Of a DNA stretch of 64,000 nt, positions 1 through 60,679 are shown one piece after another. The position numbers were made by a program, and so were the translations under genes. Every line of letters begins with the position of its first letter. Position 1 is the stretch's first letter. The notes beneath the pieces were generated by a model. The model had not been told where the DNA came from. It saw nothing but the letters and a program-made list of their open reading frames with translations, and ran no database searches. The stretch comes from Escherichia phage vB_EcoM_KAW3E185. The stretch is taken from the sequence record MK373782.1, one strand, 5' to 3'.

Positions 1-429
1 AGGTGTCTGACGATACCATTTAGATTGGGCTAGATTTACTGCCGCTTCATCCCAACGTTTCTGTTGAAGCATACGAAGAGAATTAGTAAAACCGGCGACG
101 CCTGATATACCCATTTGGAAGACCATATTGACCAATGCACACCGACGAACCGCATCTAAAGAATCATATACCGGTTTAAGTTTAGCATTACCCAAGATTC
201 CGCGAACGGCTTTATCAACGTCTTCATTAAATAGCTTTTCAGCCTCATCAAGAGTAATTGTACCGTTGCATTTACGTCCGATCATTCTGTCAAGTTCAGC
301 TTTAGCTACGGCTAAAGACGGGTTCTTTGTTACTAAATGGCCTATGCCAATAGTCCAAAAGCCTTCGGTGTCTTTGTATAAAGTCAGTCTAAGACCTTCG
401 TCATTACGAAGCATTTCAAATATATTCAT
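1..429 (-). CDS. e: Lysozyme (endolysin) e, partial - C-terminal ~22 aa lie beyond window start
   Basis: Minus-strand translation from ATG at ~429 reads [23 protein letters not shown], matching the T4 lysozyme N-terminus; GGAGG Shine-Dalgarno upstream; not in ORF track because it runs off the window. Confidence 0.85.
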
Positions 430-463
430 AATACCTCCCACGTTTATAGGAGGTATTTATTAC

Positions 464-922
464 TTATAGGAGTGTAGTGAGCACCTTATATAATGATTTG
501 CCCATTACATATTCCCATTGAGAAGGTTTAATTAAAGCGAATGCATCAAATTCAGGAATCTGTCGTCCGTCTGGGAATGTATGATAGGAATTACAAACAC
601 TGTTTCTGAATTGCTCGTGCTCTACAGGGATGGTATATAGGAACAGATGAATATTCTTATTGTCTGAGTAATGATGTTCACCTAGGTCTTTCAGGAAGGC
701 AGGGTCATATTGTGTAAACCCAGTTTCTTCTTCGCATTCACGAATAGCGGCTTCAATAGGAGATTCACCCGGCTCGACACGTCCTTTAGGAATATCCCAC
801 CGATGAGCTAAAGAACCTTTAGGACGAGAACCAGTTACACGCCCCATGAATAATTCTTTATCTTCGGTAAGGAAAATAATACCGGCTGATAGTTCTTTCA
901 CTTTATTTTTCTTACTCATCAT
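464..922 (-). CDS. nudE: Nudix hydrolase
   Basis: 152 aa; Nudix box GRVEPGESPIEAAIRECEEETGF; sits next to e as in T4 (e.1). Confidence 0.85.
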   Translation of the reverse strand: MMSKKNKVKELSAGIIFLTEDKELFMGRVTGSRPKGSLAHRWDIPKGRVEPGESPIEAAIRECEEETGFTQYDPAFLKDLGEHHYSDNKNIHLFLYTIPVEHEQFRNSVCNSYHTFPDGRQIPEFDAFALIKPSQWEYVMGKSLYKVLTTLL

Positions 923-1148
923 CTCGGTCCCATGATTTGGCCATTAATCCGGACATAAATTCTTCAATGCGCGTTTCTTTAGATGGACTTTCACTATTAG
1001 AGACCGCAAGTTTGTAATCTGCAATAGGACAGAACATATCAAGGTCCATATTAAGGTCGTCTTTGATTTTTTCTTCTGACACATCTTTATCGTATGTGTA
1101 CAGATAACTATCACATGATTCTGATTTAATGTAAATTGCTATACTCAT
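912..1148 (-). CDS. Hypothetical small protein (start 1148 or 1163)
   Basis: ORF track 912..1163; internal ATG (MSIAIY) has AGGAAT Shine-Dalgarno. Confidence 0.5.
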   Translation of the reverse strand: MSIAIYIKSESCDSYLYTYDKDVSEEKIKDDLNMDLDMFCPIADYKLAVSNSESPSKETRIEEFMSGLMAKSWDRDDE

Positions 1149-1624
1149 CTCAAATTCCTGCATTCGGTAATAAAACGTTCAACTTCATTATTCTTGGCTT
1201 TTATCTTGTCTTTATGTTCTTGTAAACTACTTTTAATAAGATTAATAATGATAGCGACAGTGCCGCCGCCAATGATGCCACCAATAATACTTACGATAGT
1301 AGATGCTAATAAGATAGCAATAATATCAACAAAACCGAAAGAACTCACCTTAGTACTAAAAAACCATACCGATGGTACAAATATAATCCATCCTGCTATC
1401 CATTGGCACTTATTGAAAAACTTTTCAAGATCAGCTTGAGTTGTTCGTATTACTTCATCGATAGGTTGATAACCGTTAATGTATCTGTTCACGATAATAC
1501 CTGCTGGCTGGTCGATTTTAAATTCTTGGCAAATACGTTTAACTAAGTAGGATGGACATCCTGTCCAATCTACTGAATAGTATGAAATACCTTTATTGCC
1601 GTCGTCTATATTATTGTTAATCAT
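1145..1624 (-). CDS. Membrane protein with C-terminal FITECR tail (family A)
   Basis: 159 aa; long hydrophobic segments; ends ERFITECRNLR; GGAAGG Shine-Dalgarno. Confidence 0.65.
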   Translation of the reverse strand: MINNNIDDGNKGISYYSVDWTGCPSYLVKRICQEFKIDQPAGIIVNRYINGYQPIDEVIRTTQADLEKFFNKCQWIAGWIIFVPSVWFFSTKVSSFGFVDIIAILLASTIVSIIGGIIGGGTVAIIINLIKSSLQEHKDKIKAKNNEVERFITECRNLR

Positions 1625-2310
1625 TACCAGCCTTCCATAGGGAATTCCAGATAAACTTGAGCGTTGACACGAATTTCATTGGTAATCTTTTTAACTCGGT
1701 CTGTATTACGAGATACACGTCCGAACCAACGCCATCCATTACTAATTGCACGAGAACCAGTGTGCCATGTTTGCCAATCAAACTGAAGAAGAGTACGGTC
1801 TGGAGCTTCCCATTTCTCTAGTTCACCTTTTTCAATTTTTTCGAGGACTTCTTTGTGCCACTGGCGATAGATAAGTTCGCCATCAGGAATCTGACTGAAC
1901 TCTGCAGTTCCTGTTGCAAAATGAGTAGGACACACATCAGCGTTAACAAGACCAAGAATATGTTCAGAATGGTAACGAGGGTTGTCATAGTCAGGTTGTC
2001 CTGCAGTAATAAAGTGTTGACCAACTGGAATATCAGGGCGAGGAACATCGTCATGGTGGTATCCAGGGATAGCAGGATACCACCCAGGCATCAGCATATG
2101 AACCCGAGAATCAAATACAACATGTTGATTAGTCCAATCAATTGGGAGATTGGCAATAAAGCTACGAGTGATTGAGCCACCATTATCCCAAGCAAAACCC
2201 AAATCACAATTAAAGAACATTGGTTCATTTTTGATTCGGTCATTTTGTACGTTATGTGCAAAACTACCAACTGCACGAGCTTGACTATTAAAAGTTTTAG
2301 AACTATTCAT
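1624..2310 (-). CDS. Hypothetical 228-aa protein, His-rich (possible metal-dependent enzyme)
   Basis: ORF with GAGGAAAA Shine-Dalgarno; motif PGYHHDD and several conserved-looking His/Asp; no TM segments. Confidence 0.6.
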   Translation of the reverse strand: MNSSKTFNSQARAVGSFAHNVQNDRIKNEPMFFNCDLGFAWDNGGSITRSFIANLPIDWTNQHVVFDSRVHMLMPGWYPAIPGYHHDDVPRPDIPVGQHFITAGQPDYDNPRYHSEHILGLVNADVCPTHFATGTAEFSQIPDGELIYRQWHKEVLEKIEKGELEKWEAPDRTLLQFDWQTWHTGSRAISNGWRWFGRVSRNTDRVKKITNEIRVNAQVYLEFPMEGW

Positions 2311-2311
2311 A

Positions 2312-2617
2312 TTATTTTCCTCGACATTCTTTAATGAAATTTTCTAGATTGGTAGATTCAATAGCTTTTTTACGAGCTTCTGCGTGTTCTTCTTCAGACA
2401 ATTTACATTTATAATTGACCCAGACGTTATGGTCGAAACTAGTCGTGGCATATAATAACAATGCTCCAACGAATAGCAAAAACGGCGATAAGAATACAAA
2501 ACCAGGAACACCATCCATACTGTAAGCCTTTTGTAATACTGCAACAGAAAGAGCTGCGTAAAAAAGTGATACAAATATTGTTAAAAGACCAATTCGGTTG
2601 GTTTCGCCTAATTTCAT
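2312..2617 (-). CDS. Two-TM membrane protein with C-terminal ENFIKECR tail (family A)
   Basis: 101 aa; two hydrophobic helices; ends LENFIKECRGK; GAGGAG Shine-Dalgarno. Confidence 0.7.
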   Translation of the reverse strand: MKLGETNRIGLLTIFVSLFYAALSVAVLQKAYSMDGVPGFVFLSPFLLFVGALLLYATTSFDHNVWVNYKCKLSEEEHAEARKKAIESTNLENFIKECRGK

Positions 2618-2626
2618 AATATTCTC

Positions 2627-2668
2627 CTCATGTTTTAATAGGACTACTATAACATAGTCCTATCAGTT
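2627..2668 (-). promoter_or_regulatory. Early promoter with stem-loop (PeSL-like cassette)
   Basis: Minus strand has a -35-like TGTACAAA, 17 bp spacer, TTATAGT -10, inside inverted repeat ATAGGACTA...TAGTCCTAT; approximate coordinates. Confidence 0.5.
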
Positions 2669-2675
2669 TGTACAC

Positions 2676-2876
2676 TTATTTTGACATTTCTTCGATGTCA
2701 CGACGATACCCATCACGAACTTCACGAAGAGCTTCAAGGCCACACATAGGCTCGATACCAGTAATGTGAACTTGATTAATCTGATACTCTACATCTTCTA
2801 ACTGAGCGAAAACATAACGACGTTCTGCTGCACAACCAGGTTTAGCTTTACCGAAACGTTTATTCAAAGTAGTCAT
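2676..2876 (-). CDS. Hypothetical small protein (66 aa from internal ATG)
   Basis: ORF track 2676..2894 begins at a GTG; internal ATG MTTLNKRF has GGAGAT Shine-Dalgarno. Confidence 0.5.
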   Translation of the reverse strand: MTTLNKRFGKAKPGCAAERRYVFAQLEDVEYQINQVHITGIEPMCGLEALREVRDGYRRDIEEMSK

Positions 2877-2902
2877 TTTTATATCTCCATTCACTCATTT
2901 GT

Positions 2903-2947
2903 TTTGATAGGTCTATAGTATCAACAACTACAGACCTTGTAAACTGT
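2903..2947 (-). promoter_or_regulatory. Early promoter with stem-loop (PeSL-like)
   Basis: GTTTACA, 17 bp, TACTAT on minus strand; inverted repeat AGGTCTGTAG...CTATAGACCT spans the -10. Confidence 0.55.
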
Positions 2948-2956
2948 TTTGTGAAA

Positions 2957-3913
2957 TTATTTGAAAGGTTTTACCATATGAAAGTTTTGTTTGAAACGCT
3001 TGACGTAATCGTCGTGTCCTAAGCTTTGGTACATACTTACTACTTTGCTATAATTTTCCCAAGCGAACTCACGGAACCATCCTGATGTGATTGATGTACA
3101 GACCTTTTCAAGGGCCATCATAAAACTATCACGTGGATGGATTTCAAAGTTATTAGGAATCTGAGAACGTTCTAACGCTAGTACACATGATTCTTCGTAT
3201 ACGCCGGCCAATTTGACCATTTCTGGTAATGATTCGAACTTCTCGCGTGAGGTCATGACTTCAGAACCATCTTTCATATAAAATGTATACGCTGGACGGT
3301 CTGTTAGTGCAATGGCTTCGTGAATAGTATCATGATCGTATGTGTAGATGTCATCTTTAAAGAATGCGCTTTTAGAAGTGTCAAGAACCGGGTGAGCATA
3401 ATTCAAAGTTTCTTTCTGGCGTTTCAGCATAATTTCAGTAAGTTCATCGTTCAGTGTAACACCTTTACCACGAAGATACTGAATATGGTTCATAGTCTTT
3501 AAAAAGAATGGATTATTTTTCTTGAAACGATGAGACATCTTAATTGCAAGACATATCTCAGGAGTTGCCCAGTAAAACCCGTTCAAACGGTCTTTAGTCA
3601 AATTTTTCTTGGCGTATTTTAAAAGGTCATAAGAAGACGTGAAATCTTCAGGAGTGAGTTCACCGACTAATTCACGGACATTAGTGATTGCCGGAACAAT
3701 ATATGCTTCAAAATGAGTTTCGCGTCCATTATGGAAGCATTTGAAAACTTGGACATCAGGGTTATCTTGGTGAACATATACACCCATCATTTGATTTTTG
3801 AATGCATTCCAAGAACCTTGGTCCGCAATAAAGTCCCAATCACTATTTTTAATAGCGCTAGAATCAATAAGACCGTGATAGTGAAGTGCACGAGAACCAA
3901 TAACTAACATCAT
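2957..3913 (-). CDS. Hypothetical 318-aa protein with possible nucleotidyltransferase-fold motif
   Basis: N-terminal hhhGS-x17-DWDF resembles the GS...DxD signature of Pol-beta-type nucleotidyltransferases; GAGGAAAA Shine-Dalgarno; assignment is speculative. Confidence 0.6.
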   Translation of the reverse strand: MMLVIGSRALHYHGLIDSSAIKNSDWDFIADQGSWNAFKNQMMGVYVHQDNPDVQVFKCFHNGRETHFEAYIVPAITNVRELVGELTPEDFTSSYDLLKYAKKNLTKDRLNGFYWATPEICLAIKMSHRFKKNNPFFLKTMNHIQYLRGKGVTLNDELTEIMLKRQKETLNYAHPVLDTSKSAFFKDDIYTYDHDTIHEAIALTDRPAYTFYMKDGSEVMTSREKFESLPEMVKLAGVYEESCVLALERSQIPNNFEIHPRDSFMMALEKVCTSITSGWFREFAWENYSKVVSMYQSLGHDDYVKRFKQNFHMVKPFK

Positions 3914-3941
3914 AATATTTTCCTCGGATTAATTCATTAAC

Positions 3942-4193
3942 TTAAATTTCACGACATGCGATATTATATTCATCCCAGAGGTCATCATGTGAAGCCTCTA
4001 CCAATGGAACGATTGTACCGTTTATGTCTTCATTATAAGGGCAAATTGTACAGTGCGCATCTTCGAATCGGATGCCTTTGTGTTCAGATTTTTTATAACG
4101 CATATCGAATATCTTTGCAAACTTTTCACGAGTAATGGTTTTAGCAACCACTTTAGTTCCGATACTTTCGTAATAAATCATTGTGGACTCCAT
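3942..4193 (-). CDS. Hypothetical small protein (C-terminus NIACREI, weak family A resemblance)
   Basis: 83 aa; preceded by a PeSL cassette. Confidence 0.55.
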   Translation of the reverse strand: MESTMIYYESIGTKVVAKTITREKFAKIFDMRYKKSEHKGIRFEDAHCTICPYNEDINGTIVPLVEASHDDLWDEYNIACREI

Positions 4194-4196
4194 TTG

Positions 4197-4246
4197 TTTT
4201 GATAGGACTACTATAACATAGCCCTATCTTGTTGTAAACTGTTTTA
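4197..4246 (-). promoter_or_regulatory. Early promoter with stem-loop (PeSL-like)
   Basis: GTTTACA, 17 bp, TATAGT with inverted repeat ATAGGGCTA/TAGTCCTAT. Confidence 0.55.
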
Positions 4247-4441
4247 GCAAGAATAACTAGATGATACCCAGCCTTGAACAGTGATACTATTGTGGGATAA
4301 TGAGATCGCGTCCTGGAGATTCAGACCTGCGTTATCTTCAATCCATAATGTAACTTCTTCGCGTTCTTCTGTTGCAATTTGGAACAGGTTTTCCAGAGCA
4401 GCTACTGCCGTACGTACAGCACAATCTAATTCACGAGACAT
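4244..4441 (-). CDS. Small protein, C-terminal GWVSSSYSC (family B, paralog 3)
   Basis: 65 aa; AAGGAA Shine-Dalgarno overlaps the stop of the upstream paralog. Confidence 0.65.
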   Translation of the reverse strand: MSRELDCAVRTAVAALENLFQIATEEREEVTLWIEDNAGLNLQDAISLSHNSITVQGWVSSSYSC

Positions 4442-4450
4442 ATTGTTTCC

Positions 4451-4723
4451 TTAGCAAGTGTGAGAAGATGCGACCCAACCACCGGTTTCGAGGCTCAGGT
4501 TGTAGTCGTATTGGTAAACGTCAGCCCATTCAGCATAGCCGTTTTTTGCACAACGTTCAAGATCGGCTTTAAGATGTCCGGGTGAATGATAGGTTCCACC
4601 CATACCATAAGCTGGGTACAAGTTGAATGTTGTGTTTTGTTTATCAGCAATTTCTTTGGCAGCCTCAATAGCTGCATAGATTTTTGCTACAGCTTCAGCC
4701 AGTTCGGTTTGTTCTTTAGACAT
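4451..4723 (-). CDS. Small protein, C-terminal GGWVASSHTC (family B, paralog 2)
   Basis: 90 aa; AAGGAA Shine-Dalgarno; internal similarity to 4733..5038. Confidence 0.65.
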   Translation of the reverse strand: MSKEQTELAEAVAKIYAAIEAAKEIADKQNTTFNLYPAYGMGGTYHSPGHLKADLERCAKNGYAEWADVYQYDYNLSLETGGWVASSHTC

Positions 4724-4732
4724 AATGATTCC

Positions 4733-5038
4733 TTAGCACAACGCAGAAGACGAAACCCAAGCACCTTCAGTAATAACGTATCCATTACCTTCACGCTTAA
4801 CATCGCCGCCATTATTTTCAATTTCATCTTTCATCCACTGGGATACGATTTCACCCTTAGGATAATAAGTACGACCGCTACCATAATCACCTACAGAAAA
4901 TGATACGGCATATTGGTCTGCGATCTTTGTTGCTTCTTCTTCGATACGTTCAGCTTGATTCAGAAGTTTATAAATTGCATCTGAAGCGGATTTGGCATCA
5001 TTAAACTCTGGTACTTTAATTTCAATAATCTTACTCAT
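4733..5038 (-). CDS. Small protein, C-terminal GAWVSSSALC (family B, paralog 1)
   Basis: 101 aa; start ATG overlaps the stop of the upstream gene (AAATGA). Confidence 0.65.
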   Translation of the reverse strand: MSKIIEIKVPEFNDAKSASDAIYKLLNQAERIEEEATKIADQYAVSFSVGDYGSGRTYYPKGEIVSQWMKDEIENNGGDVKREGNGYVITEGAWVSSSALC

Positions 5039-5394
5039 TTTCTACATTCCTTAATAAAGTTTTCGATTGTTTCATTTTCACGTTTAGCTAGAAGTTCATT
5101 ATAACTAATCATTTGAGAAGCGTAAATCTTTTTATTTTTCTTGTTATGGTTTATAAAATCGTAGTAAAAATAGACTACAGTACAAAATGATGCGATGGAT
5201 GCAAAGGCTTGGGTATACCGTAAGTCCTGCCATTGGTCTGTGAATCCACCAGTGTTCCCTATAAATCCTAACACAACGCCGTCAATAAGAAATCCAACTA
5301 ATCCAAAGGCAAATCCCATGCCAATACTCATAATAAAAATTAGAATGTTCTCACCAAGAGAAGGCCATACGGTTAAGAGTTGAGGCTTTTGCAT
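5035..5394 (-). CDS. Two-TM membrane protein with C-terminal ENFIKECRK (family A)
   Basis: 119 aa; two hydrophobic helices; AAGGAA Shine-Dalgarno. Confidence 0.7.
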   Translation of the reverse strand: MQKPQLLTVWPSLGENILIFIMSIGMGFAFGLVGFLIDGVVLGFIGNTGGFTDQWQDLRYTQAFASIASFCTVVYFYYDFINHNKKNKKIYASQMISYNELLAKRENETIENFIKECRK

Positions 5395-5768
5395 CTTATT
5401 TCCTTAACGAATTCCATAGCTTCTTCATATTCATACTTTTTAACAGCCTCGTCATATTGGGCTCTTGCTTTTGCACATTGAATTTTCCATTCACGTACTC
5501 GAGCTCTATAATGACGTCCTTGGTACCAATATCCCACCCAATTAATAGGCATTAATAAAAATGGCACAATAAACGACCCGGCTATAATAAGTAAAAACAC
5601 TGCATCAGACGATATAACTTCACTAGAATCTAAAACAGCTCCTATAATCATAAAGATTAAAAATGCTAAAGCTAAAATAGGGCCAAATAGTACTTCATTT
5701 GGGATTAATTTACGCTTGTATTCATACGCCCAGGGCTTACTTGGTATGTATAGGGTTGGCTTTGACAT
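5373..5768 (-). CDS. Two-TM membrane protein with C-terminal EFVKEIRCK variant tail (family A)
   Basis: ORF track 5373..5798 begins at a TTG; internal ATG MSKPT used; hydrophobic helices. Confidence 0.6.
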   Translation of the reverse strand: MSKPTLYIPSKPWAYEYKRKLIPNEVLFGPILALAFLIFMIIGAVLDSSEVISSDAVFLLIIAGSFIVPFLLMPINWVGYWYQGRHYRARVREWKIQCAKARAQYDEAVKKYEYEEAMEFVKEIRCKSLNS

Positions 5769-6339
5769 ATTCTCTACATTCCATAATAAATTGCTCAAGG
5801 ATTAAATTGTTAGTGAAATTAGGACTAACAACCATGGTTTCATAAAGCGCATCAATAGCACTTAAAGCATCAACTCTTTTAAGCAAAGGCTTGCCTTCAT
5901 ACATAGTTTCAGAATCGACGATTAACGTAAAGTAATATTTTTTATTATCGACTAGAACTTCTGTATCGATATAAAACATATTAGACCTCAGAAGCTTATC
6001 TCTAAAACCATAATAATCTTCTGAACGTTCACTGATATATTCCCATTCAGTGTTTAAACAACAAACAGACCATGTAGGAGCAACGAAATCAGTGAATCTA
6101 ATATCATGGTCTGCAACTAGTTTAGCAATAGCTCCGATATCATGAATCATAATACCTGGGGCTAATAAAGATTTTCTGCTATGGCTAGCCGTTTTCTCAG
6201 TAGTCTCATAAGAAGACGACCAGTACCATTTACGTCCGGTTGCAACATATCGTAATGAATCAACTAAAGACGTAGGTGGATTTACCTTATCTCGGAACTC
6301 TTCGAACATTGAGTCAATATCATTATTTTGGTTTCGCAT
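5737..6339 (-). CDS. Hypothetical 200-aa soluble protein with C-terminal EQFIMECRE motif (family A)
   Basis: ORF track 5737..6360 begins at a TTG; internal ATG MRNQNN has AAAGGAG Shine-Dalgarno. Confidence 0.6.
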   Translation of the reverse strand: MRNQNNDIDSMFEEFRDKVNPPTSLVDSLRYVATGRKWYWSSSYETTEKTASHSRKSLLAPGIMIHDIGAIAKLVADHDIRFTDFVAPTWSVCCLNTEWEYISERSEDYYGFRDKLLRSNMFYIDTEVLVDNKKYYFTLIVDSETMYEGKPLLKRVDALSAIDALYETMVVSPNFTNNLILEQFIMECREYVKANPIHTK

Positions 6340-6356
6340 GTTAACTCCTTTATTAT

Positions 6357-6380
6357 CCAAAAGGAGGACCGGAGTCCTCC
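6357..6380 (-). terminator. Intrinsic terminator hairpin
   Basis: Perfect palindrome GGAGGAC-CGGA-GTCCTCC followed on the minus strand by TTTTGG; approximate coordinates. Confidence 0.55.
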
Positions 6381-6388
6381 GTATTATT

Positions 6389-6982
6389 TTATTTCAAAGA
6401 GTTAATATATTCTTGTACATCAGCAGAAGTGGTTTCGACACCGGCTGGAGTGCCATTGAACGTTTCAACACGAGTCAGAGTGTCTTCGATATCAACCTTA
6501 GTCAGTGCAGCGATTTCAATTACATCATCAGCCGTAGAGATACCAAGGGCATTGGCTGCTCGAGTTTCACGAATGTATTCGAGTTTGATTGCCAGGTTCT
6601 GACGAGCATCGTCAAGTTCAACCACCTTACGAGCAATTTCAATTCGCATAGCGGCATACCCGTCAGCTTTTGTATTAAGTTGTTCGGCAGTTCGACGATA
6701 CAGAAGACCAAGCTTAGCATGCATGGTAACATCTTGTCCTTCGGCCAAGAGCTTACGAATTTCACGTTCCTTAGAAGCGGCTTGCTTATTCTTTTCAATA
6801 ACAAGTTCGCGAATACGTTTTTCTTCATTAATAGATTTAACAGAAGCCGTTTTTAGTTCTTTGATTTGGGTAATCAACTTATCTGCAGCTGCGTTATACT
6901 GTTCTTCGACAGTCAGATTTTTAGCCATAGCAGTACCCAGTTTAGTGCGGATGAATTCAACAAGTTTCTTCAGTGTGTTCAT
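6389..6982 (-). CDS. Coiled-coil protein (weak PspA/IM30-like character, speculative)
   Basis: 197 aa from internal ATG MNTLKK with AAGGT Shine-Dalgarno; highly charged heptad-like sequence. Confidence 0.6.
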
Positions 6983-7052
6983 ATTATTACCTTTCAATTG
7001 GTGGTCTATTATCCAATGAGAGCATTATACTCTGCTCTCAAGAGTTTGTAAA

Positions 7053-7280
7053 TTATTTTTTAATCAAATTGACATAAAACTCGGCGTCTTCTGGGTGCAT
7101 GCCTTCACAGTATTCTTCAACCATGAACTTCTTAACAGCTTCATAAGGACCACTCAGATTAAGCTCAGTTGTCCAGAACTTGGAATCTTGGACCGAATCG
7201 ATACGAACGTCAGGGTGACGGTTGCGAATAACTTCTTCAGTATATTCATAATCAACGACATCAATACTAACTTTAGCCAT
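7053..7280 (-). CDS. Hypothetical small protein
   Basis: 75 aa; GAGGAAAA Shine-Dalgarno. Confidence 0.55.
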   Translation of the reverse strand: MAKVSIDVVDYEYTEEVIRNRHPDVRIDSVQDSKFWTTELNLSGPYEAVKKFMVEEYCEGMHPEDAEFYVNLIKK

Positions 7281-7326
7281 TTTGTTTTCCTCTTGATTTG
7301 ATGTGATTACTATAACATAAACTTAC

Positions 7327-7491
7327 TTAGATGTAAATTATTTCAACGTCACCTTTAGCGGCTTTATAACCTTCAGCCCAAGATACAACAGAGTTTTTAT
7401 CTGAGGATTCAAATTCAGGCATTGGACTTTCACCAATATTCACACAGTATGTTTCTTCATTTTCATCGAACCAAATAATTAAAGTAGTCAT
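7327..7491 (-). CDS. Hypothetical 54-aa protein (below ORF-track cutoff)
   Basis: Hand translation MTTLIIWFDENEETYCVNIGESPMPEFESSDKNSVVSWAEGYKAAKGDVEIIYI; GAGGAG Shine-Dalgarno; own upstream promoter-like cassette. Confidence 0.5.
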   Translation of the reverse strand: MTTLIIWFDENEETYCVNIGESPMPEFESSDKNSVVSWAEGYKAAKGDVEIIYI

Positions 7492-7559
7492 TTTGTTTAC
7501 TCCTCTGTAGTTGATAAGTCTATAGTATCACCATCCTTGGTGCTTGTACATCATTATTT

Positions 7560-7865
7560 TTAATTTTTCCAACTTAACAACTTGTAGTGGCCTTCATTCA
7601 TACGTGGTTTATCCCAAGAAATACTAATATATGATTCACTGTCAATAGAAGTCGCCGGGTTTTTCTCTACCGTAAGACCTTCACTTTCCAGCCATTCAAT
7701 AGTATTTGCACATAAATCAGAAGAACACCTAATCGGAAACCGGCAAGATTTTTCACCTTTAGCTGCAGCGTTATACATCTTTTCTAAAATACGCTTTTGC
7801 ACGTTTTTAAAAATAGTTTCAGCAGATTCTTCGGATTTTTTATTCAGTTCAGTATAAAGACTCAT
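7560..7865 (-). CDS. Hypothetical small protein
   Basis: 101 aa; GAGGAAAA Shine-Dalgarno; PeSL upstream. Confidence 0.55.
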   Translation of the reverse strand: MSLYTELNKKSEESAETIFKNVQKRILEKMYNAAAKGEKSCRFPIRCSSDLCANTIEWLESEGLTVEKNPATSIDSESYISISWDKPRMNEGHYKLLSWKN

Positions 7866-7867
7866 AA

Positions 7868-7918
7868 CATTTTCCTCTGCGGTTGATAAGTCTATAGTAT
7901 CATGTCCTTAGAAGAAGT
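7868..7918 (-). promoter_or_regulatory. Early promoter with stem-loop (PeSL-like)
   Basis: GTTTAC, 17 bp, TACTATAG on minus strand. Confidence 0.55.
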
Positions 7919-7953
7919 AAACATCTTTATGAAATATTTTTATGCCCTAGATA

Positions 7954-7982
7954 CCAAAAAGCCCCAACCGTAAGGAAGGGGC
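7954..7982 (-). terminator. Intrinsic terminator (copy 1 of a 29-nt repeat)
   Basis: Minus strand GCCCC-TT-CC-UUAC-GG-TT-GGGGC followed by TTTTTGG, directly downstream of 7989..8453. Confidence 0.65.
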
Positions 7983-7988
7983 ATTCTA

Positions 7989-8453
7989 TTATTTAATTTG
8001 TTTAGCAGACCAGATACGGTCTTTAATAAGTTTTTGGATATCTTCAACATACTCAAGGCTATGAGCGTGAGGATTATCTTTGAAACTACGTGCTCGTGCC
8101 AGTTTCTGGCCTTCTGTTTTGATTACTAAAAGCTCTTTAAGAATTGCTTCATACTTAGAAATAATTCCTTTAACGATATTTTTTTCTTGAGCTGTTTTAG
8201 GGTCAGTTTTTGGCGCAGGTGCTTTACCTGTAGCTTTCTGGAACAATTCACCTGATGCAGCTAGGCTTTTAAAAACTCGGCTAACAGTATTAGCATTAGT
8301 AAAACCTTCGGCTTTAAAATCTCTAATAAAACGGAAACGTTCTTCATCGGAGGCGTCTTTGTAAGAATATTTACCTGCTTGAATTGCTGCAATCGCAGCG
8401 GCTTTTACATCTGAACTAGATTGTTCAGTCAAAAATTCAGCGTATGATTTCAT
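7989..8453 (-). CDS. Internal-protein-like (IP) gene with capsid targeting sequence
   Basis: N-terminus MKSYAEFLTE matches the T4 IP targeting sequence MKTYQEFIAE with an L-x-E prohead-protease site; 154 aa. Confidence 0.7.
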   Translation of the reverse strand: MKSYAEFLTEQSSSDVKAAAIAAIQAGKYSYKDASDEERFRFIRDFKAEGFTNANTVSRVFKSLAASGELFQKATGKAPAPKTDPKTAQEKNIVKGIISKYEAILKELLVIKTEGQKLARARSFKDNPHAHSLEYVEDIQKLIKDRIWSAKQIK

Positions 8454-8496
8454 GTTGCTTTTCCTAAGTTAATTAACTTATCTATTTATTATTATG

Positions 8497-8525
8497 CCAA
8501 AAAGCCCCAACCGTAAGGAAGGGGC
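8497..8525 (-). terminator. Intrinsic terminator (copy 2 of the 29-nt repeat)
   Basis: Identical to 7954..7982; downstream (minus) of the non-coding RNA region. Confidence 0.6.
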
Positions 8526-8577
8526 TAAGCCTTGCGGCAACCTTGTCGGGGTTCCACCTGCTAAGGCAAGTGTTTGT

Positions 8578-8669
8578 ACGAAACGCCGGGATTCGAACCC
8601 GGTTATTAAGCAGTTGACGCTACTCAATATTTTTAAAAGGCCATATCTCGACCATATCCGAACGTTCCG
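8578..8669 (-). ncRNA. tRNA-like element or stable RNA candidate (canonical T-arm, non-canonical remainder)
   Basis: Minus strand contains CCGGG-TTCGAAT-CCCGG T-arm and an acceptor-like pairing, but the D and anticodon arms do not fold canonically; lies in a ~300-nt ORF-free stretch. Confidence 0.35.
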
Positions 8670-8832
8670 TCAAAAACGCTACTCGGCTTACGGCAAAGAT
8701 ATTTCCTCGAATCGATAATTCGGTGCGCCGTTTCTGTTGTGATAGTAAAGAATCAGAACACAGTAAAACTGTGGGAGAAACTATACTCCAGGGAACATCA
8801 GTCCGACGACTTACCGGTAGCGACCCGGTTTC

Positions 8833-9177
8833 TCATTTTGGCATATCATCAATTTGCTCTCGACGCCGACGCCATAGATTAATCGCTTCATTAACACATT
8901 CGGCGTTTGGTATATGACGGCAATAATATAATGATTCGCGTTTCTGGAACCGATGTTGCAACGGGATTTCGTTTAAAAGATCTTTACGATCAAAGTATTC
9001 AAAACTAGTTAACCCTGAACGGTTTTTAATGAACTTCCAATGGCCGAATTCATTTTGAACATAGATGTAATCGGCATGCTGATAAAGTGAATTAATCAAT
9101 CGATGAGAAATAACTGTATCATATTCATTAAAATAAAACGTTAAATCATGAACTACCAAATAAATATTGCCTTTCAT
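8833..9177 (-). CDS. Hypothetical protein (115 aa from internal ATG)
   Basis: ORF track 8833..9225; internal ATG MKGNIYLVV has GAGGAAAA Shine-Dalgarno. Confidence 0.5.
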   Translation of the reverse strand: MKGNIYLVVHDLTFYFNEYDTVISHRLINSLYQHADYIYVQNEFGHWKFIKNRSGLTSFEYFDRKDLLNEIPLQHRFQKRESLYYCRHIPNAECVNEAINLWRRRREQIDDMPK

Positions 9178-9195
9178 ATTTTCCTCACTTATAAT

Positions 9196-9272
<77 letters not shown>

Positions 9273-9275
9273 GAT

Positions 9276-9352
9276 TGGTGACCCAGACCAGATTCGAACT
9301 GGTAACCTTTCCCTTATGAGGGGACTGCTGCTAACCGTTGAGCTACAGGGCC
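9276..9352 (-). tRNA. tRNA with CAU anticodon (Met, or Ile if lysidine-modified)
   Basis: Canonical T-arm ACCAG-TTCGAAT-CTGGT, anticodon loop CTCATAA, encoded CCA; one acceptor mismatch and an imperfect D-stem in my reading. Confidence 0.6.
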
Positions 9353-9431
9353 TAAATAACTTTCTATTATGAAAGGCACTTTAGAGCACCTTTGGTAATA
9401 GAGGGTATGAATTAATAATAACACATAATTC

Positions 9432-9947
9432 TTAAAGCAAATCAATCATTTTAACAGTTGGCAAAACGATTTCTTCTTCAATATAAGCAAATTCAACACA
9501 TTCAACTACACACAAGAAATCATAATCATAATATTCAGAAGCATGTCCAAGAATACCAACGAGACCTTCTGATACTAAATATCCATTCTCACAGAACAGG
9601 TCGAATACACGCGATTCGTCTTCTTCAGATTTATTACCAAGGTCGACTTCAATATCAAAGACCTTTTTAATGAATTCTGGATAAAGATGGTCTGAGAACA
9701 GTCCTTCAACCAGATATTCGTAGATAATAAGCGAGCAATCACTGAATGGTGTATTACCACAGTAACGTTCAGCTTTAGTGCTAGAATGACGACTCTTAAA
9801 TTTCTTCAAGAGATATTTAAACTGTTGGAGCTCATGCTCTTCTACACCAAATAATGTTTTGGTTTTATAGTTGTCGCCGTCATTTTCCGAAGTAGTGACA
9901 TCAATTACGTAACCTTTAGGGATTGTACTGCCTAAACAAATATTCAT
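9432..9947 (-). CDS. Hypothetical protein
   Basis: 171 aa; GGTGA Shine-Dalgarno. Confidence 0.55.
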   Translation of the reverse strand: MNICLGSTIPKGYVIDVTTSENDGDNYKTKTLFGVEEHELQQFKYLLKKFKSRHSSTKAERYCGNTPFSDCSLIIYEYLVEGLFSDHLYPEFIKKVFDIEVDLGNKSEEDESRVFDLFCENGYLVSEGLVGILGHASEYYDYDFLCVVECVEFAYIEEEIVLPTVKMIDLL

Positions 9948-9951
9948 TTAC

Positions 9952-10242
9952 TCACCGTACCATATTAATGTAATTATATTCAATGCAACGTAATTTCAAA
10001 GTGTTCTTGAAAATATCGTATTCAAGAGGGCCTGATTCAGTTTCAATAAAGAAATCAAAATTAACTGTGTTAAATTTATTGTCTTCACAGAGTAATTTAA
10101 CCTGTGAAGATGAACGGTCGATATAAACCTTTTCAACCTCAAAGTTAGTCAGAATACCGTAGTCATCGACTAGTGCTTTAGCTGCACGTTGGTCGCTTTC
10201 ATATCCATTCTCAACGGATTTTACCTTAGCATAAAGAATCAT
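9952..10242 (-). CDS. Hypothetical protein
   Basis: 96 aa; start overlaps the stop of the next gene. Confidence 0.5.
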   Translation of the reverse strand: MILYAKVKSVENGYESDQRAAKALVDDYGILTNFEVEKVYIDRSSSQVKLLCEDNKFNTVNFDFFIETESGPLEYDIFKNTLKLRCIEYNYINMVR

Positions 10243-10601
10243 GAATGTTCCACCACTTCAAAGGTATGAGCATCAACAATATGATACCAGTCAAAATTTT
10301 CTTCTGAGTTTTTATAAATTTCGCGAAGAGCTTCAACAGTTTTTCCTGTAGCAACAAGATCATCAATACCACCAAGAGGATAACAGTCATAACCAGCAAA
10401 CAGAAGGAAATTAATAGTTTCTGTAGGTTCTGGATGCAGAACACCGTTATCGTCTACCACTTCAAAGAAAGTGTAAGAAGGAGTACAAGTTTTAATCCAA
10501 GCCCAGGCTTGAGCTGCTGAATCAAATGGTCCGCGTATCAAACGACAATCAGGGTCTTTAGAAGGATTTGCTTCAAAATCTGCATATACATGATATTTCA
10601 T
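10239..10601 (-). CDS. Hypothetical protein (120 aa from internal ATG)
   Basis: ORF track 10239..10619; internal ATG MKYHVYADF has AAGGTGAG Shine-Dalgarno. Confidence 0.55.
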   Translation of the reverse strand: MKYHVYADFEANPSKDPDCRLIRGPFDSAAQAWAWIKTCTPSYTFFEVVDDNGVLHPEPTETINFLLFAGYDCYPLGGIDDLVATGKTVEALREIYKNSEENFDWYHIVDAHTFEVVEHS

Positions 10602-10602
10602 T

Positions 10603-10809
10603 TTACTCACCTTTTGCAATTTTATCCATAACGATAGCGATTAAGCCGATTAGAAATGCTACTACCAATGAGATAGAATTTTCTGTTGTTGTCAGTAGTC
10701 CACAAATGAATCCTACAAACATCGAAAAACTAAAAGCCATTGAAGCAATTACTACAGCAACATTACGAATCAGTTCAGCGCGTTTCATTTTATTTCTCCA
10801 TTTACTCAT
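10603..10809 (-). CDS. Small two-TM membrane protein
   Basis: 68 aa; two hydrophobic segments; PeSL cassette upstream. Confidence 0.55.
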   Translation of the reverse strand: MSKWRNKMKRAELIRNVAVVIASMAFSFSMFVGFICGLLTTTENSISLVVAFLIGLIAIVMDKIAKGE

Positions 10810-10857
10810 TTGTTTTGATAGGACTACTATATCATATCCCTATAGGCTTGTATACCT

Positions 10858-11121
10858 TTATTTCAAATATATTGCGTATTTTTTATAGCCACCAGGCTCG
10901 TGTCGAAGACCTTTATCATTTGCAAAACGTTGAATGTTATTGAACTGATTTTCATCAAGTTCAGACGTGTCAAATATGAAAAAGTTTCGTTTGTTACCAA
11001 GCGTGATATGCGGAGTTAAGTCAATGTTATACAAATTAAGAATATCAACAATAACCTGATTGACCGCTTTGTTAATTTTCACACCAGACGATTCTGAGAT
11101 GAATTCGTTGAAAGTTTTCAT
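10858..11121 (-). CDS. Internal-protein-like (IP) gene with capsid targeting sequence
   Basis: MKTFNEFISE at internal ATG (ORF track starts 4 codons earlier, at 11133); L/I-x-E cleavage motif. Confidence 0.65.
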   Translation of the reverse strand: MKTFNEFISESSGVKINKAVNQVIVDILNLYNIDLTPHITLGNKRNFFIFDTSELDENQFNNIQRFANDKGLRHEPGGYKKYAIYLK

Positions 11122-11135
11122 TTTAGGTTCCATTT

Positions 11136-11186
11136 GGTTGTTTTGATAGGACTACTATAACATAGTCCTATCAGCATGTAAACTAC
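11136..11186 (-). promoter_or_regulatory. Early promoter with stem-loop (PeSL-like)
   Basis: GTTTACA, 17 bp, TTATAGT with inverted repeat ATAGGACTA/TAGTCCTAT. Confidence 0.55.
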
Positions 11187-11474
11187 TTACAGAAGAGTTT
11201 TTGCAATAATTTTAAGCTGAGCTACAGAAATATGCTTAGCTTTAAACAGTGCAGTCTCTTCAGCCGGAGAGATAACAATAGTAGCGCCATCTTTCTTAGC
11301 AGACCATCCATCCCCTAAGTAAACAGTACCTTTTACTTCTTCACCATCAACCAGACTAATCATTGGTTTACCCTCACGTCCTTTATTTGTTTTAATAACT
11401 TCAGAAGTAAGGGATGCTTCGGTCAGAGTAGAAACGTTAGCAACAGGTGATATAAATTCTTTATAGGTTTTCAT
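11187..11474 (-). CDS. Internal-protein-like (IP) gene with capsid targeting sequence
   Basis: N-terminus MKTYKEFIS; 95 aa; AAGGAAATAAA Shine-Dalgarno. Confidence 0.7.
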   Translation of the reverse strand: MKTYKEFISPVANVSTLTEASLTSEVIKTNKGREGKPMISLVDGEEVKGTVYLGDGWSAKKDGATIVISPAEETALFKAKHISVAQLKIIAKTLL

Positions 11475-11477
11475 TTT

Positions 11478-11548
11478 ATTTCCTTGAGGTTGTTTATTTG
11501 ATAGGATGATAGTAACACACCATCATCCTTATGTAAACTGTTTTGTGA
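11478..11548 (-). promoter_or_regulatory. Early promoter with stem-loop (PeSL-like)
   Basis: GTTTACA, 17 bp, TACTAT; spacer inverted repeat AGGATGAT...ATCATCCT. Confidence 0.55.
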
Positions 11549-11551
11549 AAA

Positions 11552-12237
<686 letters not shown>

Positions 12238-12241
12238 TTTA

Positions 12242-12976
12242 TTACCTTAAGATTGTTTCAATTTTAGAATAAAGCTCTTCTAAAGAGCCGTCGTTTGTAA
12301 TAACTAAATCGCCTTCTTCAATAGGCAACCCAGCTTCTGTAATATGTTTATCGGTGGATTCCGTACCAGAGCGAACCACATGAATAACTGTAGCACCCAT
12401 CGCTCTAGCGGTTTCCATTTCATGGACTTGGCGTGTATCGGTCACAACATAGTAATCGAAATCACTTCCAATATAATCCGTATAGTTTAATGCAAAAAGT
12501 TTAACCCAATACATACGGTCAAATAAATTAACGACAACATCCGTACCGAGGGCTTGCATAAGACGGCGGATTGACCATGTGTCGTTGATATTATTTATAG
12601 CTTCACGCAGGGCTTCATATGGTTTAATATCTAGATACGAATATCCACCTTCTAACGATGATAATACTTTAACATTATTAATCGGTAAATATTGACTTTG
12701 CAAATAAATTAGCGCTTCTTCCAATAATTCAATAACATCCAACTTATTGAGATTTAATGGTGTTTCACGGTCGTATCCAATGCCTTCAAAGTATTCGTAT
12801 TTCAACTCTGTGAATACATCAGGATTTTCAGCATGCCTACGTCCCCAGGCTATTGCTAGAGCGTCTTTAATTGGATATGCTAATTGGTATTTTACGGATT
12901 TAAAGTTTGAATTGATGTAATCAGCAGTGGTGTCTTTACCACTACGTTTGATGCCACTTAAAAAGATTAGCTCCAT
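12242..12976 (-). CDS. 1: gp1 deoxynucleoside monophosphate kinase
   Basis: 244 aa; P-loop SGIKRSGKDT; T4 order. Confidence 0.85.
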   Translation of the reverse strand: MELIFLSGIKRSGKDTTADYINSNFKSVKYQLAYPIKDALAIAWGRRHAENPDVFTELKYEYFEGIGYDRETPLNLNKLDVIELLEEALIYLQSQYLPINNVKVLSSLEGGYSYLDIKPYEALREAINNINDTWSIRRLMQALGTDVVVNLFDRMYWVKLFALNYTDYIGSDFDYYVVTDTRQVHEMETARAMGATVIHVVRSGTESTDKHITEAGLPIEEGDLVITNDGSLEELYSKIETILR

Positions 12977-13029
12977 AGGTTTTCCTCATATAATTTATGA
13001 GTGATTATAACATACGGAGCTAGAAGCGA

Positions 13030-13614
13030 TTAACGCAAGGAAGGGTGTCTAGAAATGGATTTAGATTCGACTGCTTGACGTGGTTGTTGAGATACAATGA
13101 CTTCACCATCCTTTTCTATCGTCATGTACGCATAGTGAATAGTTGCTACGCACGTAACGGCAGGGTCAGAGTCTTCGGTGTAACTAAATTCAATTTCACT
13201 CAAATCAGAAATCCATGGTTTATAGAAATTCGCCGTCAAAACTACTTCAGTCTTATTGTTGTTTAAAATGTGCAAAGTAACAAACTCAGGACCATCGGAG
13301 TGGGCCGTATTATGTCCGGTTATATAGTTATTAGTGCTGAGCATCCATTTATACATGTTCATCCAGGACGTCATGTCTTCATCAACTATAAATCGTACAA
13401 CAAAAGGGTCGTATTCAAATGTGGTGCCTGCACGCATTGCACGTCCTAACCCCATCGTGCCTGTCACAGTTTCAACAACAGGAATTCTCACACCTGGCAA
13501 TGGAGCCGTTTGGGCATTGAGCACAAAACCTGAAGTTCGTGTACTATCTGGGATATCCACAACAAAGTTTGTTATATTTGTTTGGTTAAAAATCTGTCTC
13601 GTTGGACGAGTCAT
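13030..13614 (-). CDS. 3: gp3 tail completion / sheath stabiliser (start uncertain)
   Basis: ORF track 13030..13620 (GTG start); position between gene 1 and gene 2 as in T4. Confidence 0.7.
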   Translation of the reverse strand: MTRPTRQIFNQTNITNFVVDIPDSTRTSGFVLNAQTAPLPGVRIPVVETVTGTMGLGRAMRAGTTFEYDPFVVRFIVDEDMTSWMNMYKWMLSTNNYITGHNTAHSDGPEFVTLHILNNNKTEVVLTANFYKPWISDLSEIEFSYTEDSDPAVTCVATIHYAYMTIEKDGEVIVSQQPRQAVESKSISRHPSLR

Positions 13615-44609: not shown

Positions 44610-44625
44610 TTTTAATCTCCTCATG

Positions 44626-60678: not shown

Positions 60679-60679
60679 A

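Follow-up and report, generated by a model that had tools for sequence, protein, structure and literature searches.

The window analysed here is a stretch of 64,000 nucleotides of Escherichia phage vB_EcoM_KAW3E185 [GenBank: MK373782.1], and its segment between positions 2,627 and 11,548 carries a series of short promoter cassettes placed in front of small genes. All genes of this cassette-bearing interval are encoded on the minus strand. They form an accessory block composed of 57B, genes for internal proteins (IP), tRNA.4 to tRNA.2, two tRNAs and rnaC, followed by small genes of the frd.3/e.8-e.2 type in the direction of nudE and e, the region having been placed with the help of the annotation of APCEc01, ATK47, RB69 and T4. 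Many Mosigvirus (RB69-like, Straboviridae) genomes align with the interval 2400-11800 at 94-97% identity, covering more than 90% of it, and APCEc01 comes closest (96.6% identity, 97% coverage). The analysis presented below leads us to conclude, with a probability of roughly 0.85, that the elements are T4-type early-promoter cassettes, known as promoter-early stem-loops (PeSLs), in an RB69-like phage: self-contained modules which stand right after the preceding stop codon, start early genes and mark the points of gene exchange.

Ten such cassettes, with the general form [AG]T[ATG]TAC[AT], 16 or 17 bp, TAnnnT, were recognized by reading the sequence and by pattern matching on the minus strand between 2618 and 11553, with -35 heptamers starting at 11538, 11183, 10855, 7922, 7551, 7338, 7053, 4239, 2944 and 2675. 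Two distant ones lie at 44610-44683 and 60679-60752 (-35 at 44668 and 60737), and there is a marginal thirteenth match at 47484-47513. The first-pass annotation had listed at least ten promoter cassettes in 2627-11548 and further copies near a gene for 88 amino acids (aa) and an alt.-1-like gene, and all of them were found in place and on the minus strand. Two of its generalizations had to be narrowed. The -35 heptamer GTTTACA is exact in four of the ten regional copies, but the other six carry variants with one or two mismatches (GTATACA, GTTTACT, ATGTACA, ATTTACA twice and GTGTACA); and it was too much to place the cassettes upstream of most small genes, since they precede ten of the roughly 27 genes of the interval and are missing from the tightly packed runs 4244-6360 and 9432-10788. 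Every one of the 12 cassettes is located on the coding strand, 29-42 nucleotides (nt) ahead of a start codon, with a spacer of 17 bp in 11 of them and of 16 bp in one. Ten of the 12 fall within the 9-kb accessory block from 57B to e.2, where the downstream genes code for IPs or belong to PHROGs of unknown function.

The strict pattern GTTTACA N15-19 TANNNT gives seven matches in comparison with 1.7 expected, all on the minus strand, and none of 100 shuffles reached seven. In an unsupervised repeat search the cassette came out as the largest direct-repeat family of the 64 kb (D1, eight copies of 65 nt, with sub-families D2, D5 and D6). A profile hidden Markov model (HMM) built from the 12 copies re-finds all of them with expectation values (E) between 4e-13 and 3e-6, adding only 47522-47480 (E 6.5e-4) and a weak plus-strand match at 38875-38906 (E 0.0075). 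A relaxed promoter regular expression applied to both strands returned 22 matches against 16.5 +/- 3.9 in shuffled sequence, which is no overall enrichment. The statistical signal is the extended similarity together with the bias in strand and position, as captured by the strict pattern, the repeat family and the profile; the hexamers alone are insufficient. Searches with the Rfam 15 covariance models over 2000-12500 at E<=1 detected the two tRNAs only and gave no score over any cassette. Chance similarity in AT-rich intergenic DNA could be suspected in an AT-rich genome, the more so as a generic sigma-70 scan of the region gives 44 promoter-like sites where 35.7 are expected. This possibility is refuted by the strict-pattern and profile statistics; moreover, all copies stand on the coding strand directly ahead of start codons and their orthologues are conserved in RB69 and T4, and we assign it practically no weight.

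A cassette comprises, in order, the stop codon of the upstream gene, an A-rich element resembling the upstream (UP) element, the -35, the spacer, the -10, the start region, the leader, the Shine-Dalgarno sequence and the ATG. The UP-like element reads TTTCACAAAACA in the first and the ninth cassette and is present in RB69 and T4 too. The spacer ends in TGn in seven of the ten regional copies, and their -10 hexamers, of the general form TAYWRT, are TATAGT (five), TACTAT (four) and TATAAT (one). The start region C(C/T)TATCAA, common to eight of the 12 cassettes, begins 3 nt past the -10, after three variable bases; it is followed by an unstructured, A/C-rich leader with GGAG, GAGG or AGGA 5-9 nt ahead of the ATG in all copies. 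A 19-nt leader, CCTATCAAAACAAATGAGT, is exact at 2893-2911 and 10804-10822, and a third copy has three mismatches; thus the identical short leader that had been reported as frequent is limited to two copies, but its shorter core, the start region just described, is indeed widespread. This anatomy matches the UP/-35/TGn/-10 architecture of T4 early promoters, which are stimulated by Alt (PMC2988021), including the preference for C at -3 to -1 described for the early promoters of RB69 (PMC1524935). In 2006, 58 early promoters (Pe) were predicted for RB69 by a promoter HMM (PMC1524935). The orthologous RB69 sites identified by a scan with the same pattern are all in that list (PMC1524935 Additional file 3), as Pe:67959, 69254, 72069, 72354, 72567, 73274, 76459, 76812 and 77187, entries that are predictions themselves. 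A literature search yielded no usable map of transcription start sites for T4 or RB69-like phages.

The regional cassettes, all on the minus strand, are designated c1 to c10 in the order in which they are transcribed. The first of them, c1 (11475-11553), precedes the ipI-like gene 11187-11474, which matches the PHROG internal virion protein; it has its -35 at 11538-11532, its -10 (TACTAT) at 11514-11509 and a hairpin enclosing the -10 at 11529-11503 (free energy, dG, -15.4), and its sequence is identical to RB69 Pe:77187. Upstream of the second IP gene, 10858-11133, c2 (11134-11198) shows a -35 at 11183-11177, TATAGT at 11159-11154 and a hairpin at 11173-11144 (dG -17.7); it is chimeric, its 5' half corresponding to RB69 Pe:76459 and its 3' half to Pe:76812. 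The tRNA.4 homologue 10603-10788 is preceded by c3 (10789-10870; -35 GTATACA at 10855-10849, -10 at 10831-10826), the hairpin of which (10843-10818) is degraded to a dG of -5.6 and the RB69 orthologue of which is Pe:76459. Cassette c4 (7866-7937), upstream of gene 7560-7865, combines GTTTACT (7922-7916), the 16-bp spacer and TACTAT (7899-7894); its -10 has no hairpin, and the promoter follows an intrinsic terminator (7982-7951) at a distance of about 29 nt. Gene 7327-7491 is headed by c5 (7492-7566; -35 ATGTACA at 7551-7545, -10 at 7527-7522), which is identical in sequence to RB69 Pe:72567 and possesses a 5-bp hairpin inside the spacer only. The -35 of c6 (7281-7353; ATTTACA at 7338-7332, TATAGT at 7314-7309), in front of the frd.3 homologue 7053-7280, falls within the end of the upstream gene; c6 has no hairpin, and its RB69 orthologue, Pe:72354, is a 'half' cassette in which the 3' half AGTCCTATCAAAAC occurs without a matching 5' arm. 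The e.6 homologue 6389-6982 follows c7 (6983-7068), with ATTTACA at 7053-7047, TATAAT at 7029-7024 and the hairpin GAGAGCA/TGCTCTC at 7040-7017 (dG -13.8), its RB69 counterpart being Pe:72069. Ahead of the ORF135 homologue 3942-4181, c8 (4182-4254; -35 at 4239-4233, -10 at 4215-4210) forms a hairpin with one G.U pair at 4228-4201 (dG -16.0) and corresponds to RB69 Pe:69254. In c9 (2877-2959), upstream of a gene for a 66-aa protein, the -35 lies at 2944-2938 and TACTAT at 2920-2915, and the hairpin arms are AGGTCTGTAGT/ACTATAGACCT (2937-2909, dG -15.2). The last one, c10 (2618-2690), precedes the ORF133 homologue 2312-2617 with GTGTACA at 2675-2669, TATAGT at 2651-2646 and a hairpin at 2665-2636 (dG -15.5), and is orthologous to RB69 Pe:67959.

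The two distant cassettes are on the minus strand as well. That at 44610-44683, between genes 23 and 24, has its -35 at 44668-44662, TAATAT at 44644-44639, the start region AGACCTATCAAAAC and no significant hairpin (dG -2.7), and lies upstream of the 88-aa gene 44343-44609 and a gene for a GIY-YIG homing endonuclease (43680-44339). These two insertions, the endonuclease gene (phrog_314, E 5e-54) and the 88-aa gene, take the place that segD has in T4, with the major capsid gene 23 on one side and gene 24 on the other. The other one, at 60679-60752, stands directly past the stop codon of alt and upstream of the alt.-1-like gene 60385-60678 (97 aa), with the -35 at 60737-60731, TACTAT at 60713-60708, a 5-bp hairpin in the spacer (60728-60715) and 76% identity to c1.

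The leader contains an ATG of its own, at 10809 in c3, 4193 in c8 and 2898 in c9. The first-pass annotation had noted correctly that ATG 2898 is out of frame with the start codon at 2876. In c3, with its start codon at 10788, and in c8 the leader ATG is in frame, yet APCEc01 has been annotated from the second ATG. The shift in frame at c9 shows that translation does not begin at the leader ATG, and a cassette-borne start codon was rejected as well on the grounds that no Shine-Dalgarno sequence stands ahead of it, that its frame varies and that relatives are annotated from the second ATG. The downstream ATG had been credited with its own Shine-Dalgarno sequence, but this GGAG is a part of the shared leader (caaaacaaatgagtGaatggagaTataaaAatg in c9 and caaaacaaatgagtAaatggagaAataaa-atg in c3). 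The leaders of c9 and c3 are homologous up to the start codon, and their difference in frame comes down to a 1-nt indel, a single extra A in an A-run of the untranslated leader. What had been taken for a sign of cassette insertion is therefore a sign of an untranslated leader ATG.

Part 1-13500 of the window was aligned to ten Mosigvirus relatives, and chaining of the high-scoring segment pairs gave 12 distinct structural differences, i.e. 24 endpoints. At least one end lies in a cassette in eight of the 12 differences, and at least ten of the 24 endpoints are inside cassettes, which occupy 4.8% of the sequence (binomial P ~7e-8). The comparison of gene content thus bears out the earlier suggestion that the cassettes outline the units of gene shuffling. 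Seven events have both ends in or beside cassettes: the presence or absence of a 262-bp gene module, with a junction made of two -35 heptamers (2675|2938); the presence or absence of the second IP gene, with a 73-bp overlap (10855|11116); the replacement of the IP gene by Ip7 or another IP (10799|11085 and 10843|11090); the presence or absence of gene 7327-7491 (7302|7485); an extra IP gene in RB69 (11506|11452); and the replacement of the ipI-like gene in phage SF (11188|11452). For six of the seven, the second endpoint is situated 6-48 nt outside the defined cassette interval, mostly in the conserved coding leader for the IP N-terminus (repeat D18). The first ~30 coding nucleotides of the two IP genes (11095-11125 and 11448-11478) are 81% identical and specify the capsid-targeting leader MKTF/YxEFIS; this coding leader extends the recombining repeat into the coding sequence, and several breakpoints lie 17-48 nt inside genes.

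Two more events, 7877|7953 and 7877|8499, have one end in the leader of c4 and the other in a 32-nt terminator repeat. Copy 1 of this repeat (7951-7982, minus strand; GCCCCTTCCTTACGGTTGGGGC followed by TTTTT) is the partner breakpoint for insertions and replacements starting in the c4 leader. At copy 2 (8494-8525, minus strand), 97% identical to it, the RB69 replacement and the deletion in EP32a have their right-hand breakpoint, and the repeats serve as right-hand breakpoints also of the insertions in ChristianSchoenbein and SF. The two copies, which flank the gene 7989-8453 for a 154-aa protein (phrog_2280), seem to be a second kind of recombination landmark. One endpoint is found near c5 but outside it, 24 nt upstream. 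It belongs to a replacement of 29 bp versus 217 bp at the 3' end of gene 7560-7865 (7575-7605) relative to APCEc01, ATK47, Shf125875 and moha, as a result of which the protein has 101 aa here and 167 aa there; the breakpoint is inside the coding sequence. Genes 2676-2876 and 7327-7491 have in common the Shine-Dalgarno region and the first five codons (2847-2888 and 7462-7503; ATGACTACTTT, MTTL...), their proteins being otherwise unrelated, and this sharing suggests past crossovers just inside the coding sequence.

From the aligned genomes we show here that small early genes are deleted, inserted and replaced with endpoints in the 50-90 bp of similarity between cassettes, which is extended in the IP genes by the coding leader MKT(Y/F)xEFI. 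The exchange would proceed by the general homologous or microhomology recombination of the phage, possibly via excised mini-circles as in RB49/phi1.

The gene module of event 2675|2938 recurs at other loci in other phage genera. The gene part 2676-2937 (262 bp) is absent from six of the ten Mosigvirus relatives (RB69, AV111, ChristianSchoenbein, Shf125875, SF and moha). The 66-aa protein encoded by it (gene 2676-2876, phrog_6200), of unknown function, is shared by Mosigvirus and Tequatrovirus at 97-100% identity and by phages of Klebsiella and Serratia at 56-71%; between the two coliphage genera the identity, 98-100% in amino acids, is far above the genome-wide level. Together with its cassette halves the gene is found in three phage groups, each time in an unrelated setting: at e.2/ORF134 in Mosigvirus, at nrdC/mobD in Tequatrovirus and at denB/ndd in a Klebsiella phage. 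In Yersinia phage phiD1 (Tequatrovirus) it is g099, located in the nrdC/mobD region between a nucleotidyltransferase gene and g098 (2501-2701 of the locus extract), and in Klebsiella phage HMGUkp2 it is found between denB and ndd (2001-2201 of the locus extract). When the window is aligned with phiD1, the UP element and the -35 match, the alignment breaks at the spacer, -10 and hairpin, where the stems are different, and it resumes exactly at CTATCAAAACAAATGAGT. Past that point there are four nucleotide differences in the 201-nt gene, and then the entire c10 is aligned up to the start of the next gene. Because the homology with phiD1 spans the leader, the gene and the whole of c10, the transferable unit is the leader, the open reading frame (ORF) and the next promoter/hairpin, which here is 2612-2910 on the minus strand. 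As far as sequence comparison goes, gene 2676-2876 is proven to be a cassette-bounded insertion.

The cassettes might also be viewed as ordinary early promoters, each kept independently and resembling the others through the strong T4 consensus only, with no special role in exchange, in intergenic DNA that merely tolerates breaks. Such a view gains from the fact that T4 early promoters are known to be recognized through the conserved blocks (UP, -35, TGn and -10), that a promoter HMM alone sufficed to find the RB69 orthologues and that the total of the relaxed regular expression falls within the shuffled range. The similarity, however, reaches beyond these blocks to the hairpin arms, the leader (19 of 19 nt), the Shine-Dalgarno region and the first 20-50 coding nucleotides of the IP genes. 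There are chimeras whose halves match different RB69 cassettes, and the same gene with the same cassette halves stands at unrelated loci in Tequatrovirus and Mosigvirus. Furthermore, no endpoint falls in other intergenic spacers of the region, such as 3914-3941, 6340-6388 and the flanks of the tRNAs, with a single exception in the tRNA genes. We consider it unlikely that independent maintenance of promoters accounts for the family.

Turning to the stem-loop, a strong inverted repeat enclosing the -10 is found in six of the ten regional cassettes (11538, 11183, 7053, 4239, 2944 and 2675; dG -13.8 to -17.7 kcal/mol, z -5.3 to -7.2). The hairpin is degraded at 10855, reduced to five base pairs in the spacer at 7551 and 60737, and absent at 7922, 7338 and 44668; a -10 inside an inverted repeat, stated before as a common property, is thus a property of a part of the family. 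The six strong hairpins persist when folded in 86-101 nt of context, and the apparent long-range pairing of the UP/-35 part with the leader in c1 and c9 is of low complexity (GUUU/AAAC). In the window the bases that follow the -10 (AGTCC, AGACC, CATCC and GCTCTC) are complementary to spacer bases of the same cassette (GGACT, GGTCT, GGATG and GAGAGC, respectively). The early promoters of T4 ipI, trna.4, ipII and ipIII also have hairpins enclosing the -10, built of unrelated arms, e.g. GATGAGGTA/TACCTCATC and CCTAGAATTGTGA/TCACAATTCTAGG.

Covariation was analysed in 85 distinct cassettes obtained by scanning IMG/VR with GTTTACA N17 TANNNT NNN CCTATCAA, in which the spacer and the three bases after the -10 are free. 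Of these cassettes 37 fold at <= -10 kcal/mol, in comparison with 2.0 (maximum 7) when the spacer was shuffled and 11.5 (maximum 22) when spacers were swapped between cassettes. Eleven different NNN triplets occur in the hairpins, each paired with complementary spacer bases, and the helices of the set comprise 47 G.U/U.G pairs and no A.C 1x1 mismatch. The sense strand is the more stable one in 33 of 38 hairpin cassettes and never the less stable (means -14.9 vs -11.4 kcal/mol), the antisense strand folding worse by ~3.5 kcal/mol on average. A wider set of 177 distinct GTTTACW N17 TAYWRT sites was drawn from 1.08 Mb of T4-like loci; at least six pairs spanning the -10 were seen in 76 of these T-even early-promoter sites (~12.6 expected), and among the 28 arm types of such helices 24 use G.U and three show A.C. 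Since G.U is tolerated and A.C almost never, the structure is selected on the sense strand; we show here that the hairpin is under selection, kept by compensatory change, on that strand. The bias argues for a role in RNA, namely in read-through transcripts, or in non-template single-stranded DNA, as opposed to a duplex operator or a two-strand cruciform.

An action of the inverted repeats in duplex DNA would mean either an operator for a dimeric phage or host protein or a cruciform that attracts a structure-specific nuclease and so creates a recombination hot spot. In favour of this, the -10 and start site form the centre of the repeat, where operators typically lie, early promoters are shut off by a mechanism not yet understood, and the recombination endpoints fall within or beside the repeats. 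Yet the arms are wholly different from cassette to cassette, with at least 28 arm types and 11 triplets beside the -10, and because of this diversity no single sequence-specific protein could read all of them. In a cruciform both strands must pair, whereas the imperfections are nearly all G.T on the sense strand, that is A.C on the other one; four active-looking cassettes, in addition, have no repeat at all. Protein-binding palindromes and cruciforms were rejected for the diversity of the arms and the strand asymmetry of the pairing, and we regard them as very improbable.

Immediately after infection the cassettes would be fired by the host sigma-70 RNA polymerase together with the injected ADP-ribosyltransferase Alt. 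Transcription is predicted to start ~7 nt past the -10, at the A/T of CCTATCAA; this position belongs to the 3' arm of the hairpin, so that the cassette's own mRNA would be devoid of the hairpin and only read-through RNA from upstream (or single-stranded DNA) could form it. In read-through early transcripts the hairpin may insulate neighbouring genes from each other, either as an attenuator or by forming a 3'-end/processing barrier.

According to the proposal made for PeSLs, such a hairpin would be a terminator or attenuator for polymerase arriving from upstream, the cassette ending one transcription unit and starting the next. One RB49 PeSL stem-loop has been found to cut lacZ expression as much as rrnB T1, and the hairpins described here begin 10-25 nt past the upstream stop codon; the occurrence of G.U but not A.C and the preference for the sense strand also indicate a structure that matters in a sense-strand nucleic acid, which is found only as read-through RNA. 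Against this, no U-tract follows any cassette hairpin, the tail being CAAAACAAA, and none of the hairpins was called by a terminator scan; the canonical GC-rich terminators of the region, which have T-runs, are elements distinct from the cassettes (6380-6363, 7982-7951 and 8525-8494). The stems are AT-rich, of 11-12 pairs, and delayed-early expression in T4 depends on read-through of early transcripts. Because there is no U-tract the hairpin is not a classical terminator, and the label of a composite promoter-terminator in the classical sense was rejected for these copies. Termination or attenuation of incoming polymerase is on the whole a rather unlikely function.

As a tentative alternative, which for the present we hold to be doubtful, the hairpin could be an RNA insulator of the sense strand in read-through transcripts, blocking 3'-exonucleases from the upstream cistron after cleavage by RegB at the downstream GGAG Shine-Dalgarno sequence or by RNase E/G in the A-rich leader. 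Each module of leader, ORF and next hairpin would then be autonomous in both expression and decay, and the CCTATCAA core might be a preferred crossover point. RegB cuts GGAG Shine-Dalgarno sequences of early T4 mRNAs (PMC3014915); several of the leaders have GGAG followed by an A-rich run, the context of RegB cleavage, and the annotation of a close relative, O157 typing phage 3, includes regB. If true, this would provide the T-even PeSLs with a specific post-transcriptional function so far undescribed. For the sense-strand hairpin we favour the role of an attenuator or a 3'-end barrier in read-through RNA.

Several points weigh against the interpretation of the elements as mobile PeSL-type cassettes. 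Four of the 12 structural differences have nothing to do with cassettes, among them one in tRNA genes and two intragenic deletions. Some junctions, such as the -35 heptamers of 2675|2938, comprise no more than 7 bp of identity, a short stretch for homologous recombination, and intergenic breakpoints are favoured anyway since they are survivable. Four of the 12 cassettes have no meaningful hairpin, and because of this the hairpin is needed neither for promoter function nor for membership in the repeat family. The hairpins are AT-rich and have no U-tract, so the termination measured for a GC-rich RB49 PeSL cannot be assumed here. The cassettes of the covariation set are related to each other, so that their counts do not stand for independent events, although all of them point the same way. 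Finally, the start sites and the early timing in KAW3E185 are deduced from the consensus and from orthology.

The breakpoints in the tRNA genes concern AV111 (9037-9987 of the locus extract), which has ~870 bp extra, including a tRNA-Asn, between tRNA-Arg and tRNA-Met and in which the breakpoints are inside the tRNA genes. The window has tRNA-Arg and tRNA-Met (9199-9352), the same as RB69, and the second tRNA is labelled Ile(CAU) in the annotation of ChristianSchoenbein. The marginal site 47484-47513 (minus strand, E 6.5e-4) is GTTTACA N17 TACTAT within a small ORF, 47392-47592, between hoc-like and 24.2-like genes and upstream of gene 47144-47395. It has neither the shared leader nor a hairpin over the -10, a separate CCGAG-ACAG-CTCGG hairpin following it, and could represent an internal early promoter or have arisen by chance. 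Repeat family D3 consists of short direct repeats rich in GAA/GAC/GAT, coding for acidic residues, at 40015-40110 and 52017-52046, and has no relation to the cassettes.

For annotation, recognition of the cassettes fixes the real start codons and the early transcription units and shows which small genes are exchangeable; for the engineering of therapeutic T4-type phages, the cassette boundaries are natural, tolerated insertion points. The class of element, its association with IP genes and its role in modular shuffling are already in the literature, and the orthologous promoters of RB69 were listed in 2006. To this the present analysis makes modest additions: it quantifies the compensatory maintenance of the hairpin on the sense strand, provides evidence against a canonical terminator and describes one clean module of leader, gene and next cassette common to two genera at different loci.

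PeSLs, as described for RB49/phi1 (PMC2839356, 2010) and for PST/T4 and nt-1/KVP40 (PMC4122927, 2014), consist of an AT-rich upstream region, an early promoter, a stem-loop, a Shine-Dalgarno sequence and a start codon. The likening of the elements to these mobile cassettes in the first-pass annotation is upheld: the composite anatomy is as published, and the properties of PeSLs that can be recognized in sequence were all found, a stem-loop within or beside the promoter in the family if not in every copy (there is none at c6 and 44668), and a position at the boundaries of insertion, deletion or replacement between close relatives. Both the published elements (Arbiol et al. 2010; Comeau et al. 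2014) and those described here have the 17-bp spacer, a stem-loop between -35 and -10 or overlapping the -10, a Shine-Dalgarno sequence and a start codon, and both are concentrated in hyperplastic regions beside small ORFs of unknown function, at indel and replacement boundaries of close relatives. The consensus TTTACW N17 TAYWAT and the AGNA-loop-TCNT stems of the T4/PST PeSLs (PMC4122927) match the copies described here (AGGA...TCCT, AGGACT...AGTCCT). RB49-type PeSLs, in contrast, have near-perfect TTGACA/TATAAT and polyG/polyC stems, one of them terminating, while the present ones have a GTTTACA -35, AT-rich stems and no U-tract. Promoter and terminator activity and mini-circles are documented for RB49/phi1 PeSLs (PMC2839356). 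The stem-loops of PST lie just upstream of the promoter, whereas those of the window mostly enclose the -10, the PST layout being seen in c4 alone, which lies behind its terminator. The phages analysed in PMC2839356 and PMC4122927 did not include Mosigvirus/RB69.

The intercistronic repeats of the T-even IP locus (Repoila et al. 1994), to which the PeSL authors trace back the T-even type, are as summarised in PMC2839356 and PMC4122927 likewise based on T4 early promoters, with weaker AT-rich stems and variable size. In the window c1-c3 stand on either side of the two IP genes, and the gains, losses and replacements of IP genes happen exactly between these cassettes; the GenBank record of ATK47 describes Ip7 as 'flanked by 43 bp direct repeat'. 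In comparison with the repeats so summarised, the same type of cassette flanks here non-IP genes too, over 9 kb and at the gene 23/24 and alt loci. With T4-type early promoters in general (PMC2988021; PMC1524935) the cassettes share the UP element, the -35 GTTTAC, TGn, the -10 and C at -3 to -1. The Pe consensus, however, contains no hairpin, shared leader or recombination behaviour, and ~57% of the sampled T-even early-promoter sites are without a hairpin spanning the -10. With intrinsic terminators they have in common a stable sense-strand hairpin soon after a stop codon, but the stems of the cassettes are AT-rich and have no U-tract, and canonical terminators stand apart from them in the region.

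The PeSL authors drew an analogy to the gene cassettes of integrons. Both are small, mostly single-gene modules at short imperfect palindromes in which structure is conserved over sequence, maybe with circular intermediates. Unlike integrons, the cassettes have, as far as is known, no integrase or attI (no recombinase search was made), each module is expressed from its own promoter and not from a common Pc, and the exchange apparently relies on general homologous or microhomology recombination.

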